Below are positions 27,001-54,000 of a DNA stretch of 64,000 nucleotides, in pieces (positions within the stretch are counted from its first letter, which is position 1; each line of letters opens with the position of its first letter). Position numbers: made by a program. This DNA is from Candidatus Collierbacteria bacterium (lineage in GTDB: Bacteria; Patescibacteriota; Microgenomatia; UBA1400; JACPES01), in contig JACPES010000003.1 in assembly GCA_016183365.1 (NCBI GenBank), forward strand, positions 409,154 through 473,153, read 5' to 3'.

Positions 27001-30000
27001 CAGGATAATTCAAGCTCAATGGCAAAAGCCGGATCGGTTTCTGGAGCCGGAAGTTTATCAAACCGCGGCGAAGTTGGTTTTGGAGACCGATAAAAGCCAG
27101 CCGGTATTATTGGTCAATGGTTCGGAGCTGGCGTACGTTTTATCTGACAGATTACCTCCTAAGCCGTGGTTGACGCAGTTTCCGTGGTTTTTGGAATTGC
27201 CGGGATTTCAGGAAAAACTGATAGATAAATTCAAACAGCAAAATCTGAAGCAAGTGTACCGGTTCCCATATCAAAACGAAGGGGAATTTATCCCCGGATC
27301 CTATCGACCGGAAAAGTTGCTGGAATATATTAACTCTATTACCAATGATGAAACTTTTTAATTATTTTCAGGCAAAGCCTGATCCTGCTCTGCAGGAAAA
27401 TAATTGAAGTATTAAAAAATATGAAACTTTGGCAGTTGGGGATTATTATGGTCGCGGCGGCGGTTGTGTTTGCTCCGACTCTTGGGACTTATTTTTCCCA
27501 AGACGATTGGGTATTTTTATCCCACACTTATAAGCAACCGTTTGTTAACATATTCCGCCATTATTCGGAAACTTTCTATCGGCCGGTCGGCCAACAGCTA
27601 TTCTTTTGGATTGGAGGCAGGATTTTCGGTTTAGAGGCCAGCGGATTTCATTTGCTCGGGCTTCTTGTACATCTTTTGAATATTATTCTGTTATGGAAAC
27701 TATTTCGATATTTCCCTGCGGAGCAGGGTCCCGCTTCGCGGGATAAAATTTTGAGCAATACAAAATTATTTCTTCTATTATTTTATGCGGTTAATCCGGC
27801 CCATTTCGTGGCTTTAAATTGGTTGACTCAAGTTGATATTGAGATTGCGGTGAGCTTGGCGTTGGTTTCGACTTATATATTAAGGCCAGGCCTTTACGGA
27901 AAAGGCCAGGCCTTTTTATTACAAATTTGTGGAGTCGTATTATATTTACTCGGAGTTTTGTCCCATGAAATAGTGGCCTTTTTGCCGGTGGTTTGGTGGA
28001 TTTGGTTTAAACAGAAAAGAACTGCTGTTCTTGGTTTGATTGCCGGTTTATCATTAATCGGCGCCAAATTTCTGGCAAATCCGTTTTCATCAAACGCCGA
28101 TTACACGATTTCAATTAACATCTTGGGAATTATTTCTTCCTTAAAATGGTATGGGTTGCGAGCCTTATTTCTTCCTGAAGGAATCAGGAATTTTCCGGTT
28201 TGGCTGGCGGCAATAGGCTTGGTTCCAGCGATTTTTTTAATGTTGATATTTCGGCAGAAATTAGTCGACGGGGTAGAAATTTACCTCTTGGGAGTATTAC
28301 CGGTGTTGGGATTTGGCGGCCACCTGTTGGCGGCCTACGCGGTTTTTGGAATTGCGTTGATGGTTATCGAGTTGGGAAGGGTTAATGTCATTCCCGCCCC
28401 CGGTCAGAGCCGAGGGCAGGCTCCAGCAGGAATATATTTAAATAGATTCCGGGTCCCGCCTTCGCTTACCGTTTGCCTTCAGAAACTATTCGTTTACGGC
28501 TCACGGAGCGCTTTTAGGCGGGCAGGCAAACCCGGAATGACGGTATTTTTAGCTTCGGTAGTTATTTTAATGGCAACTGCGGGATTTATTTATTTTAATT
28601 ATTTAAATCATTGGAGTACAACCAGGGGAATTATTTCTCAAAGATTGACTGAAGATTATCTTGTTTCCGATTTAAAGATTAGGGAAGAAATATCGGCGCG
28701 GGCAAATAATTTTAAGGAAAATCCGGAAATATATTTTTCGTCAATGTCGGGTAAACAGTTTGAAGTGTTGGATCTTGGTTTACGCCGGGGAATTTTTGAC
28801 AAGCTGTTTTACCGTGGAAATGATTTAACCACTCAATTTTTGCCTGACGCTTTATTTTTCAAAGACAGCATTTTGGCCGGAAAATTTCCAATATGGAATC
28901 AGTGGATTATGGCTGGATTGCCGTACTTTTTAGACCCGCAAAATTTTTTGTGGTACCCGCCGAATTATTTTTTATTACTTCTGCCGATAGAGTTGGGGTT
29001 CTTAATTTTATTGATTGGTCATCTGGTTTTTGCCGGTTTATTTGTGGGTAAAATATCAGATATTTTACAGAAGGGTAACTGGATAGGGTGGTTGGGAGCG
29101 GGGATGTTTGTATTTTCGCCAAAGATAATTAGTCATATTGAAGAAGGAAATTGGAGTTTGGTGATTGCCGCTAGTTGGTTGCCGTTTTTATATTGGGCGC
29201 TAAAAAACAAACGATTAAATTGGACGATAATTTCTCTATCGGCGATTATTATTAATAATTTAAACATTGGATATTATGCGGCATTATTTGTCATGCTTTA
29301 TTTTTTGACACATTTGAGTCAGAAAAGGAGTCTCCTTATTGAGGCGAAGAGACTTATTAAAGTACTAATTGTTACGGTTGCCTTGACGATTCCAAGATGG
29401 TTGCCTTTGGCGCTATTCGGAAATCAAACTGTGAGGGTGAATTTGCAGGAATCCCCGTTGCCGTTTTGGAGTTGGACCAAGATTTTCAAAAGCTTATTTT
29501 TCCCATTGGCCGGAGGGCATCCTGTATTGCAGAACGAGGAGATATTGTATGTTGGGATTTTACCCATAATCCTTGGAATAATCTTTATATATATCTTTAT
29601 ATATCAAAAAGGAGTCTCCTTTCTGAAATTAAAAGGTGCAAGAGAGTTAATATTTTGGCTAGTTTGGTTGGGATTTATTTCGTTGGTTGCCGTTAATCTT
29701 AAAACCCCACTTTTTTATTTAACAAAATTACTTCCCGGATTTTCCCTGTTGCGGATTACCACCAGACCGTGGACTTTTGTGTCGTTGGCACAAGCGATAT
29801 TCGTGTCTTTAATGATTAAGGGGTTGGCGAAACGGTCTAAATTATTAGCCGGCGCGTTGGCGATTGTCATACTGTTAGAATACGCGTATTTTGATTACGG
29901 CATTTTTTCCCGGAGACAAATGGTTAAAAATGAAGTCCCATACAGGTTTTATCAAACAATGGCGTCAGCAGGTAATAAAGTTCGGGCTTATTGCACCACC

Positions 30001-51000: not shown

Positions 51001-54000
51001 GAGCTGGAATTTTTTACCAGACCGGATGAAAAAGAAGGGGAAAAATGGTTTGCATATTGGAAACAGGAAAGACTGCAATGGTATTTGTCTTTGGGAATGG
51101 CCAAGCAGTCTTTAAGATTTCGCGAACACGCTCCGGATGAACGGGCTCACTATGCGAGGAAGGCATTTGATATTGAATACCATGCCCCCTTCGGCTGGAG
51201 TGAATTTGAAGGTATCCATCATCGGGGGGATTGGGATCTGGACCGACATAAATTAAAATATAAAGACAATCAAACCGGAGACGAATATACCCCCTGGGTG
51301 ATTGAAACTTCAGGTGGTGTAGATCGAGCTATCCTATTCTTCCTATTGAATGCGTATCACGAAGAACCCGGTCGGGTAATTTTGCGTTTTCATCCAAAAC
51401 TTGCTCCTTATAAAGTCGCTGTGTTTCCGCTGGTGCGCAATAAGCCGGAGATTACCGCCAAAGCCAAGCAAGTTTTTGATATTTTGAAGACTCGGTTTCG
51501 GACAGGATGGGATGATCGAGGAAATATCGGAAAAAGGTATTATTCTCAAGACGAGATCGGAACTCCGTGGTGCGTGACGGTTGATTATGATACTTTGGAG
51601 GACGGTACGGTGACGGTGAGAAATAGAGATAGTGCAAACCAAGAAAGAGTTTCAATTAGAAAACTGGTAGAATATATTAACAACAAATTGTTAAATTGTT
51701 AGATTGCTATGTTGCTATATTGTTAAAATTATCTGCCATGAAACGCTCACTGTCAATTGTTTTTTGTTTTTTGTTTTTTGGATTTTTTTTATCCGGCTGT
51801 TTGTCCAAGAAAGCGGAAAAGCCTGTCGAGCGGCCAAAAATTCAGGAAACTGTTAATAGGGTTCCGGTTGATAAAAGACCTTATTCGGTTTTGTCATTTT
51901 CCGATTCCGGCCGGTTTCCCGCAGGCCGGGAATTAAAACTGGAAATAGCTGATGGAAAAAACGCCGCATCCATCGAATATGAATTGGAATATCAGGCCGG
52001 AACTTTAGTCCAAGCCGGAGTCGGTTCGATTAATCCTAAAGGAGAAAAACTTCCTTTGAGCAGAGATATTTTGTTGGGTTCGTGCAGCGCCGGCGGCGCC
52101 TGCAGTTATAGCGAAGATGTTAAGGGCGGAACACTTTTATTAAGATTTAAGGGGTCGGATATTGGCAGTATTAAAGGAGAATGGAATTTTTATCACCCCG
52201 GAAACGATGGAAAACTTGCCAGCCGTGATGCCAAATTCCAACTAGACGCTCCAAAACTTAAAAATTCGTATGTATTGGTTGCCCAAACTTTGGGATTGCC
52301 CCCTCAAGCAAATGGTGAATTAATAGCCGGTCCTTATCATCTGGAAACTACTGCAGATAAAACCGGGGATATGCAGCTAACTATGAGATTGAATGAAGAA
52401 TCTGAAGCTGTTGTTTTGTGGAGATGGGATGGGAAAGAACTCCAAAAAATTCCGTCTGAATTTTTCGGCAAAACTTTAACAGCTAAAGTTACCACTTCCG
52501 GAACCTATCTGGTGATTAAGTAGTTTCTATATCAAATTGTTTCAAAAGGTTTCAAAAAGGCCAGGCCTTTCCAAGAAAGGCCTGGCCTTTTTGATGTGGT
52601 TTGATACTCCACGCATGATTTCCAGCGGGATTTATCCCTTGACACCCCTTGAAAACTGGTGTTTAATGGTGATTAGTGGTGAAAAGTGGTGACAAGGATA
52701 ATAATCTAATGTTAATCGGGCGTTACTCTACAAGTGTTGGAGCAAAAGGAAGAGTCGCAGTTCCCGTAAAACTTCGCGAGGAGTTAGGGAAATCGGCCAT
52801 TATTTCTCAAGGATATGAAAAATCGCTTCTTCTGGTCGCATGCGACAAATGGGAAGTGTTAACGGGATTTTTGAAAAACAAGCCATTAACCATTAGCCCG
52901 GCCAGAGATACAGAAAGGTTTTTGTTCGGCAGCGCATTTGAGGTGGAATTTGACGATCAGGGAAGGATCGTGGTTCCACAGGAGCTGCGTGAATTTGCCG
53001 GATTAAATGACGAAGCCGTATTTTTGGGAGTCGGAAACCGAGTTGAAATTTGGTCGCGGGAAAACTGGGTTAAATACGACCACGATTTGAAAAAAAATAT
53101 TGAAGAAATAGCGGCTCAATTAACCGAAAACGACCATGACAAATAGTTCACGGCACGTGCCGGTGCTTTTGGAAGAAACGATTGATTTATTGAAAATAAA
53201 AACAGGAAAAAAATATATAGACGCGACATTGGGTGGCGGAGGACATACTAAGAAAATTTTAGAATCAGGTGGATTGGTTTTGGGGATAGACAGGGACCCG
53301 GAAGCGCTGGAAAAAGTCAAAAAAGATTTATCAGAATACATTAAGCAGAAAAAATTGATTGTATACAGGGGTAGTTTTGAAAATTTAGACACCATTGCCA
53401 GGGAAAATGGATTCGGAGAAATTAACGGAATCTTGTTTGATCTGGGGATGAGTTCTGACCAATTTGAGTCCGGCCGAGGTTTTTCCTTTATGAAAGATGA
53501 ACCCCTAGACATGAGGATGGATCCGGATTTGGGAGTAACTGCGGCAGATTTGGCAAACGCTTTAAGCCAAAAAGAATTGTTTGGGCTATTTACTAAACTC
53601 GCTCAAGTCGAAAGAGCAAGGGAAATTGCCGGAGCGATTGTCAAAAGGCGCCGGTTAGCTCCAATAAAAACCACCCGGGAGTTGGTGAAAATTATGGAGT
53701 CGGTTCCGGTTTGTCGGCGCCAAACAAACCTGCATCCGGCCACCAAAGTATTTATGGCTTTAAGAATTGCCGTTAACAATGAACTGGAGAATCTGGAAAA
53801 GGCTTTACCGCAAGCGTGCGGGCTTCTTGAGATCGGCGGAAGGTTGGCAGTTATAAGTTTTCATCAGGGCGAAGACAAGATAGTCAAGTGGTTTTTCCGT
53901 CAGAGATCAGTTGTTATTCCCGCGAAAGAAGGAATCTATTTAGATAGATCCCAGGTCAAGCAGTTCGACAGCCCTATGCTCACTGCCGAAGTGTCTGGGA

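Follow-up and report, generated by a model that had tools for sequence, protein, structure and literature searches.

Short GC-rich double palindromes, many of them in frame within genes, form a repeat family in Candidatus Collierbacteria

Rickettsia palindromic elements (RPEs) are about 100–150 bp long and form families RPE-1 to RPE-8, restricted to Rickettsia. They occur in frame within genes, as described by Ogata et al. (2000 Science; 2002 Genome Res; both as cited in PMC5896051). Repetitive extragenic palindromic (REP) elements and the related BIME and REPIN are GC-rich palindromes of 20–40 bp (Di Nocera et al. 2013, PMC3733652; Bertels and Rainey 2011, PMC3116915), some of which are reported to lie within genes (PMC3733652). 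REPs bear an unpaired GTAG or CGTC tetranucleotide tag at one end (PMC3733652), are predominantly extragenic, and often stand downstream of ORFs, where they may end transcripts or stabilize them. In organelles, GC clusters such as yeast GC42 (PMC4478555) and the hairpin-forming elements of sponges (PMC2800124) are mostly intergenic (PMC4478555), and PMC4478555 also cites double-hairpin elements in the mitochondria of Allomyces. In Nematomorpha, mitochondrial genes contain perfect inverted repeats with arms of up to 284 bp, which code for conserved parts of proteins (PMC6649704). Here we describe a family of short double-palindrome hairpins found in a 64,000-nt stretch of DNA (hereafter the window; positions 409,154 to 473,153 of contig JACPES010000003.1, assembly GCA_016183365.1) from a metagenome-assembled genome (MAG) of Candidatus Collierbacteria, a group of Microgenomates within the Candidate Phyla Radiation (CPR, or Patescibacteria). 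The family is at home in Candidatus Collierbacteria, and other CPR genomes contain related forms. Searches of the literature on the CPR, on Patescibacteria and on in-frame palindromic elements yielded no account of repeats of this kind in a CPR bacterium.

A first-pass annotation of the window had pointed out three copies of the double palindrome, two within genes and one between genes, and all three were found (Table 1). Each is made of two 15-nt units whose centers lie 20 nt apart, the unit being palindromic around a central W. The motif AAAGGCCAGGCCTTT, searched on both strands of the window with at most two mismatches, gave 13 matches against 0.27 expected, a number reached by none of 100 shuffles. 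The count of three was nevertheless incomplete, as these copies belong to a wider family with several cores. Its general form is AAGG-N5-CCTT, a loop of 3–12 nt, then the reverse complement, for a length of 33–43 bp. The window holds 10 AAGG-N5-CCTT units (about 1.1 expected), with a palindromic N5 in all 10, and three double patterns AAGG-N5-CCTT / 3–12 nt / AAGG-N5-CCTT (0.00 expected). AAGG and CCTT are nearly invariant across units, and the core is variable, the palindromic N5 cores being CCWGG, CCSGG, TCSGA, TCWGA, ACSGT and AGWCT. All six frames of the family sequence are free of stop codons, and the encoded residues are Lys, Arg, Pro, Gly, Leu, Ala and Gln. Only one of the five full hairpins of the window is intergenic. 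Across copy 2 and copy 3 the window agrees at 100% identity with Logan assemblies made independently from other runs, so the hairpins are not assembly artefacts. Rfam gave zero matches over the whole window at the gathering threshold, and a scan of viral contigs for the double hairpin gave 0 matches, hence no sign of a phage origin. We also considered whether restriction or methylase sites that overlap (GGCC, CCWGG, AGGCCT) might explain the cores, an idea set aside because TCSGA, AGWCT and ACSGT share no site.

Nor are the copies unique to the window. Six syntenic loci of relatives (L126–L131, 90 kb in all; L126 belongs to the Collierbacteria MAG JACRNH01) contain 47 AAGG-N5-CCTT units against 1.2 expected, of which 38 are self-palindromic. 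These units make up 20 double hairpins, of which 14 are perfect; nearly without exception they lie within open reading frames (ORFs), and their folding free energies (dG) are −20 to −35 kcal/mol. An exact-pattern scan for AGGCCWGGCCT hairpins, covering one genome per species, found 14 in the Collierbacteria MAG JACRNH01, 5 in Daviesbacteria LCEJ01 and 13 in Saccharibacteria CAZHSY01, as well as single hairpins in Gottesman-, Jorgensen- and Moranbacteria MAGs; isolated exact-pattern matches in high-GC genomes are probably unrelated. When copies were assigned mechanically to long stop-free frames, 11 of the 14 JACRNH01 hairpins fell in long ORFs, a share close to the one we would expect if insertion into a coding-dense genome were untargeted, and the Saccharibacteria copies were mostly intergenic.

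Table 1. Palindromic units and hairpins of the window, and arms of the site 1 hairpin in relatives
Feature	Position	Strand	Sequence and context
Double-unit copies	27881-27915, 33895-33929, 52556-52590		two AAAGGCCWGGCCTTT units each
Copy 1	27881..27915	+	AAGGCCAGGCCTT-TACGGAA-AAGGCCAGGCCTT, one central A.A mismatch, then TTTATTA; in frame in ORF 27421-30333
Copy 2, decayed	33895..33929	+	AAAGGCCTGGCCTTT-CCAGA-AAAGACCAAGCCTTT; in frame in class I S-adenosylmethionine (SAM) methyltransferase ORF 33771-34589
Copy 3	52552..52594	+	TCAAAAAGGCCAGGCCTTTC-CAA-GAAAGGCCTGGCCTTTTTGA; in the 185-nt spacer from lipoprotein gene stop (52523) to mraZ start (52709)
Extended imperfect palindrome around copy 3	52539..52607	.	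33-nt arms, 82% complementary
Single unit	30566..30580	+	AAAGGCCCGGCCTTA; in GT1 glycosyltransferase gene 30403-31380, read QKRPGLK
Site 2 remnant, 970-aa gene	29325..29337	+	decayed AAGGAGTCTCCTT (GGAGTCTCC type), partner arm eroded
Site 3 unit, 970-aa gene	29609..29621	+	decayed single AAGGAGTCTCCTT (GGAGTCTCC type)
Sister subfamily GGTCSGACC	23002..23037	-	perfect hairpin AAGGTCCGACCTT-GACGTACGTT-AAGGTCGGACCTT; in 510-aa membrane protein gene 22017-23549
Sister subfamily GGAGTCTCC	7930..7967	-	ATAAGGAGTCTCCTCGCCGCGGCGAGGAGACTCCTTTT, 15- to 17-bp stem, dG -30.4; in carbamoyltransferase gene 7232-9058
Site 1, window			arm 1 AAGGCCAGGCCTT / arm 2 AAGGCCAGGCCTT
Site 1, L127			arm 1 AAGGCCTGGCCTT / arm 2 AAGGCCAGGCCTT
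Site 1, L126			arm 1 AAGGCTTGGCCTT / arm 2 AAGGCCAAGCCTT
Site 1, L131			arm 1 AAGGTCTGACCTT / arm 2 AAGGTCAGACCTT
Site 1, L129			arm 1 AAGGTCCAACCTT / arm 2 AAAGTTGGACCTT
Site 1, L130			decayed; extra insertion within the loop

The intragenic copies had been read as in-frame insertions, and alignments in which homologues lack the segments bore this out. Copy 1 lies in the gene of a 970-aa membrane protein, where nucleotides 27882-27914 fold into a 14-bp stem (dG −22.4 kcal/mol, z −4.9) followed by UUUUUAUUA. It codes for LRPGLYGKGQAF, between two hydrophobic stretches of the protein. In the homologue alignment this RPGL..GQAF segment is present in the window protein, P0122 and P0123 and missing in P0127–P0130, and P0124–P0126 have segments of the type RSDL..RQGQTL in its place. 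At the DNA level, the copy 1 site (site 1) carries a hairpin in six of seven genomes, between the same flanks (TTA...TTTTTA or ATTA), and none in L128. Two further sites of the same gene are occupied. At site 2 an AAGG...CCTT hairpin is present in every one of the seven genomes, and the cores are CCTGG, TCTAA/TTAGA, ACGGT and AGTCT; the hairpins are intact and differ in their cores in L126–L129 and L131, and decayed in the window and L130. Reverse-complemented, the L128 copy at this site matches that of L126 exactly, so that the loop is flipped. Site 3 has perfect GGCCSGGCC hairpins in L126, L127 and L131.

The 970-aa gene also contains a member of a second, larger family of in-frame structured repeats (window 28375-28557 and 17707-17766; L126 10907-11026; L127 760-918; L031). 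These have ends GTCATTCC...GGAATGAC, an inner ATTCCCGCGAAAGCGGGAAT-like palindrome, and code for peptides of which VIPAKAGIYLNRFRV...PGMT is an example. In the 970-aa gene, a 183-nt segment that surrounds the repeat folds with a dG of −65, and the presence of these repeats varies among relatives. A hairpin element TTAATTATTTTCmGGCAAAGC ... GCTTTGCCTGAAAATAATTGAAGT is found in two copies of inverted orientation, at 27357-27408 and 36849-36894, directly upstream of the ATG starts at 27421 (the 970-aa gene) and 36906; it may be a junction or terminator element separating genes of the cluster.

Copy 2 is read as KRPGLSRKDQAFS in its methyltransferase ORF, and the encoded KRPGLSRKDQAF directly precedes SAM motif I (VLEVGSGG). 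The second unit, AAAGACCAAGCCTTT, brings two C.A mismatches into the stem; the fold (dG −13.8 kcal/mol, z −2.3) is equalled by 6 of 200 shuffles. In 33 distant homologues (metagenome loci, 41–52% identity, with an extractable linker), the linker from RYxPxV to xLEVGSG is free of hairpins and has 10–14 residues, mostly 11. It has 23 in the window, an insertion of 12 residues (36 nt) over the common 11-residue linker. In L077 the linker reaches 27 residues and contains a perfect 19-bp hairpin of the AAGG-N5-CCTT family (dG −32.6). An AlphaFold model of the methyltransferase (mean predicted local distance difference test score, pLDDT, 86.8) places residues 40–49 (YPKRPGLSRK) in a coil with pLDDT below 50, between helix 21–37 and strand 55–58. 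At this site some relatives have GGCCWGGCC hairpins, others GGTCSGACC hairpins, and yet others non-hairpin tandem repeats (GAAGGACGAAGGA) or weak hairpins.

At the other end of the methyltransferase gene, a repeat-hairpin element ATCCGAAT / ATTCGGAT was observed, with copies at 13698-13799, 34543-34640 and 56120-56183 that straddle gene 3′ ends. One copy supplies the methyltransferase C-terminal tail ...SDPNIRMHPNDPNI, which is also present in P0004 and P0017; homologues without it terminate in NGYNG or NGYKG.

The single unit at 30566 corresponds to a full double hairpin in L127, L128, L129 and L131, and to none in L126. The hairpin at 23002-23037 is in frame and encodes KRSDLNVRQGRTL; it has a T-run on the antisense strand only, and its L127 orthologue (5651) shows a compensatory change of the central pair from C/G to T/A. 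The hairpin at 7930-7967, also in frame, encodes SKGVSSPRRGDSLL in the linker between two Pfam domains of the carbamoyltransferase, and the segment is an 11-residue gap in the alignment to a solved homologue (PDB 9s2t). The inserts in membrane proteins are located between hydrophobic stretches.

Copies of the same element recur at unrelated sites. In L127 an identical 36-nt element, AAGGAGTCTCCTTGCCGTACGGCAAGGAGACTCCTT, is present in two unrelated genes, at 4395 and 19586. Each subfamily has its own loop or stem extension, found again at non-homologous sites: the GGTCSGACC core goes with rrCGTACGyy, and GGCCWGGCC with TTT-N3-5-AAA or TTGC-N3-4-GCAA. At site 1 the L126 hairpin has the TTGC...GCAA form, the commonest stem extension among the sampled copies of its genome, JACRNH01, and the window and L127 have the TTT...AAA form, which is that of all three window copies. 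Such genome-typical extensions at an orthologous position point to homogenization within the genome or to re-insertion. The JACRNH01 copies make use of each of the three frames and of either strand, giving RPGL, KGQAF/L or KARP/KAWP, and orthologous peptides change radically (RPGL..GQAF versus RSDL..RQGQTL) with the base pairing kept. The constraint therefore bears on the DNA or RNA and not on the peptide.

Pairing was examined on an alignment of 17 arm pairs that we assembled, with loops replaced by GAAA. Under the long-hairpin model 95.5% of cells are paired, a percentage biased upward by a set partly chosen through hairpin detection, and 8 of 13 pairs have changed on both sides, the central pair included. 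These values were reached by none of 500 shuffles, and slid registers are only 22–65% paired. A model in which each arm folds on itself does nearly as well (93.6% paired, 4 of 12 pairs double-changed). In 16 of 20 pairs, however, one arm has the complement of the other's central base, and asymmetric variants keep the arm-to-arm pairing, both of which favor the long hairpin.

Copy 3 was proposed in the first-pass annotation to be an intrinsic terminator with a perfect 17-bp stem. All the sequence features of a terminator are indeed present, between a stop codon and the mraZ promoter; the stem is perfect and its length was slightly undercounted, the fold being a perfect 20-bp stem with a 3-nt loop (dG −35.6 kcal/mol, z −6.05; 10 of 20 pairs GC) and a T-run. 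It is the top terminator-like site within 44–64 kb. The hairpin lies 29 nt past the stop codon of a gene whose attribution to a lipoprotein holds, the product starting with a lipoprotein-type signal, MKRSLSIVFCFLFFGFFLSGC, ending LSGC (100% identity to NCBI HYU89_03595), and it lies 45 nt upstream of a promoter-like sequence TTGACA-17-TTTAAT. From this layout, copy 3 most likely acts as a Rho-independent terminator insulating the dcw/mraZ promoter. Its arms, with an A-run and a T-run, suggest that termination is possibly bidirectional. Among the loci compared on the mraZ side (L132–L135), L135 (protein 85% identical) has the same hairpin after the same gene, in L133 and L134 a lone AAGGAGTCTCCTT unit precedes a conserved flank TGGTTTGATA, and L132 has nothing. 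The 3′ flank of the extended palindrome, TTTTTGATGTGGTTTGATA, also follows non-orthologous copies in the Collierbacteria loci L053 and L035; L053 (94% match) was tested as an orthologous mraZ-upstream locus and ruled out.

Several observations concern the mraZ junction itself. In the stretch 52639-52692, the TTGACA-17-TTTAAT sequence (TTGACA at 52639) precedes three direct repeats of TGGTGA, which recur every 10 nt (52667, 52677, 52687). This layout matches a MraZ operator and is conserved in L132–L134; the true mraZ ATG is at 52709, and the ORF list over-extends the gene to a GTG at 52676. In L132–L134 a HAD-family hydrolase gene separates the lipoprotein gene from mraZ (with one further ORF in L134), whereas the window has only the hairpin spacer at 52524-52708, so a gene was lost or gained at the junction. 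The L135 contig (Logan SRR22388171_519060) stops at its 3′ end within the hairpin orthologous to copy 3, which suggests that palindromes as perfect as these break up CPR genomes assembled from short reads.

Copy 1 is built like copy 3, with full terminator anatomy on the sense strand of its gene, and a T-rich tail is kept at site 1 in five of the six hairpin-bearing genomes (the L131 tail is ATTA). Copy 1 thus looks like a genuine intrinsic terminator and could stop transcripts that are not being translated. Among the three window copies it is the only intragenic one with a sense-strand U-run, and in relatives AAAA or mixed sequence, with no T-run, comes after most of the intragenic copies. 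Since these lack the tract and copy 2 is decayed on the sense strand, intrinsic termination cannot be the general role of intragenic copies, and the transcriptional pausing or attenuation within genes that the first-pass annotation put forward is a conjecture. Ordinary terminators neither make up a family of repeats whose arms are self-palindromic nor occur in frame within ORFs.

Positions 1–52 kb of the window are taken up mainly by a single long cluster for envelope polysaccharide and glycosylation, near whose 3′ end lie recO-like and tRNA-synthetase genes. Its products include GT1, GT2 and GT4 glycosyltransferases, PMT_2, YfhO-like and Wzy-like membrane proteins, methyltransferases, sugar-modifying enzymes and a carbamoyltransferase. 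At 52.7 kb begins the dcw cluster, with mraZ, rsmH and genes for a penicillin-binding protein and Mur ligases, and hairpins are absent from the dcw and housekeeping genes at 53–64 kb.

How do these hairpins compare with the described systems? Like RPEs, they are dispersed palindromes in a small genome, which enter genes in frame without destroying them, add a peptide at permissive positions and are also found between genes. Unlike RPEs, they are near-bare perfect hairpins of 33–43 bp with self-palindromic arms, their host is a CPR bacterium, and there is no sequence relationship. Beyond the likeness to RPEs, persistence at orthologous sites with replacement of the subfamily is demonstrated for the CPR repeats. 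With REPs they share a small size, GC-richness, a multi-copy palindromic nature, and the placement of a copy after a gene with a terminator-like role. They differ from REPs in their self-palindromic arms, in the absence of an extragenic bias (11 of 14 in ORFs in JACRNH01) and in the lack of a tag: GTAG, CTAC, CGTC or GACG was found within 10 nt of only 2 of 23 hairpins, the flanks being A/T runs. No REP-associated tyrosine transposase (RAYT, IS200/IS605-like) was present among the Pfam matches of 28 window ORFs, a search limited to the window. The whole CPR repeat is itself an inverted repeat, and no parent insertion sequence was identified. In form and dynamics the family bears a strong resemblance to the mitochondrial GC clusters (PMC4478555): GC-rich hairpins of about 30–45 bp, sporadically distributed in a compact and AT-richer genome, with stems more conserved than loops and subfamilies that merge or replace each other. 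Unlike GC clusters, the CPR repeats are bacterial, mostly intragenic and in frame. As in Nematomorpha, perfect inverted repeats stand in coding sequence with both arms translated; the CPR hairpins, in contrast, are short, repeated and optional, and code for non-conserved loops.

We think it probable that the family is a dispersed miniature GC-rich palindromic repeat, propagated by copying, free of stops, tolerated in protein loops, and exapted as a terminator between genes. The repeats would have spread by copying, through insertion or through gene conversion between copies, and would not have been built separately at each site. In-frame copies in loops, linkers and turns between transmembrane segments would add some 10–14 flexible residues and be tolerated as neutral; copies in constrained proteins were presumably purged. 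Self-templated correction of quasi-palindromes is a known mutational mechanism. Here the stem may be kept paired by such correction, by compensatory substitution, or by replacement with another subfamily, and in some lineages it has decayed, as in copy 2 and in the units at 29325 and 29609. As for the self-palindromic arms, we speculate that conversion between arms in direct and inverted register might spread changes to four symmetric positions.

Several points weigh against this interpretation. No transposase or other mobilizing gene was found by Pfam on the 28 window ORFs. In four filled-versus-empty comparisons no target-site duplication and no exact insertion boundary was visible, the DNA being too diverged. 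Hairpins at the same site that covary across genomes whose proteins are 60–75% identical would also be expected from a selected structure. Different subfamilies are found at exactly the same position at several sites, which needs either a strong insertion hot spot or a mechanism of replacement. Finally, a simple hairpin element has no need of arms that are each self-palindromic, a property that our reading accounts for only loosely.

A repeat that spreads by copying would account for many odd indels rich in K, R, P and G in CPR proteins, which would then be repeat insertions and not lineage-specific features. It would be a second, independent bacterial case of ‘coding palindromes’ after Rickettsia, with clear stem maintenance and subfamily turnover, and would offer a good system for how short palindromes spread and persist. 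CPR genomes are small and streamlined, yet the genes examined tolerate dense, perfect in-frame hairpins of −20 to −35 kcal/mol, one relative having 9 in 23 kb. Strong terminator-like hairpins within long genes also raise the question of transcription-translation coupling in Collierbacteria and their relatives.

The intragenic hairpins might instead be selected cis-acting RNA structures, kept at fixed positions and regulating their genes, as translation-coupled attenuators, as pause sites for the ribosome or RNA polymerase at inter-transmembrane loops of envelope-glycosylation proteins, or as determinants of RNase III cleavage or stability. The three sites of the 970-aa gene speak for it, where hairpins are retained in up to seven genomes with perfect stems and compensatory changes, as do the T-rich tail of site 1, which gives copy 1 the look of a genuine terminator 165 codons into the gene, and the clustering of hairpins in membrane and glycosyltransferase genes. 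We nonetheless regard this as unlikely, though covarying hairpins that persist at orthologous sites do give a selected structural role real room. Presence and absence vary freely among close relatives, site 1 being gone in L128 and many sites belonging to a single genome; copy 2 and the window copies at sites 2 and 3 have decayed with the ORF intact; most intragenic copies have no U-run; and the same elements are found in unrelated genes and in intergenic DNA, with a varying orientation relative to the gene. We infer, besides, that self-templated correction could keep stems perfect without selection. A combined version, in which hairpin ‘slots’ at fixed sites of envelope-glycosylation and membrane genes exist CPR-wide, exchange subfamilies by a copying process that targets hairpins, and serve as translation-coupled attenuators or pause sites, seems to us a little more doubtful still.

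It is improbable that the units serve, as double-stranded DNA, to bind a protein of two or four subunits (for instance a nucleoid-associated protein, a recombinase or a regulator) that recognizes the 13-nt AAGG-N5-CCTT, with two sites about two helical turns apart. Such a protein would fit arms that are self-palindromic (10 of 10 window units, 38 of 47 in relatives), the covariation of the self-palindrome model, the nearly invariant AAGG/CCTT around a variable core, the 20-nt center spacing in all three window copies and the existence of single units (30566, L133, L134). Across copies, however, loops of 3–12 nt put the centers 16 to 25 nt apart, and several cores coexist within one genome. Complementary arm centers in 16 of 20 pairs, and the pair AAGGCTTGGCCTT/AAGGCCAAGCCTT, which matches arm to arm without self-palindromy, fit a hairpin and not two independent sites. 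Selection on a protein-level RPGL..GQAF loop motif, or chance from GC-rich codons with incidental palindromy of the DNA, is hardly credible: the three intragenic GGCC-type occurrences of the window do share the RPGL frame, but about 0 copies are expected from shuffles, one copy is intergenic, the segment is disordered in the model and missing from most homologues, and the use of all three frames and both strands in relatives, with radical peptide change under conserved pairing, effectively refutes it.

The AAGG-N5-CCTT hairpins are one of several structured repeat families that riddle the ORFs of the Collierbacteria lineage. GC-rich in-frame inserts at 22830-22910, 27688-27771 and 31554-31622 (PAE(L/Q)GPAS..., ...RPVPDGTGLRG) share the DNA motifs CCTGCGGAGC.GGGTCC.GCTTCGC and CGCCCTGTACCAGACGGTACGGGGCTTCGC, and are missing at these places in L126 and L127. 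Between the ORFs 16760-17131 and 17254-18891 lies a large AT-rich inverted repeat (17132-17262), made up of short repeats of the AATTTTCAATTTACAATT type, with 56-nt arms that are 80% complementary; tandem repeats related to these (GAATTCAGAATT and AATTTCAAATTT) are found within ORFs, for example at 35153 and 42764, in L126 and in L128. A family of small hairpins, AAGTTTCGyAAACTT (peptides GKFRKLP, EVSQT), is also present in ORFs, at 36463-36500 in the window, at 542, 999 and 19313 in L126 and at 259 in L127, and one of its sites, in a GT4 gene, is the position of a GGCCWGGCC-type hairpin in L127.

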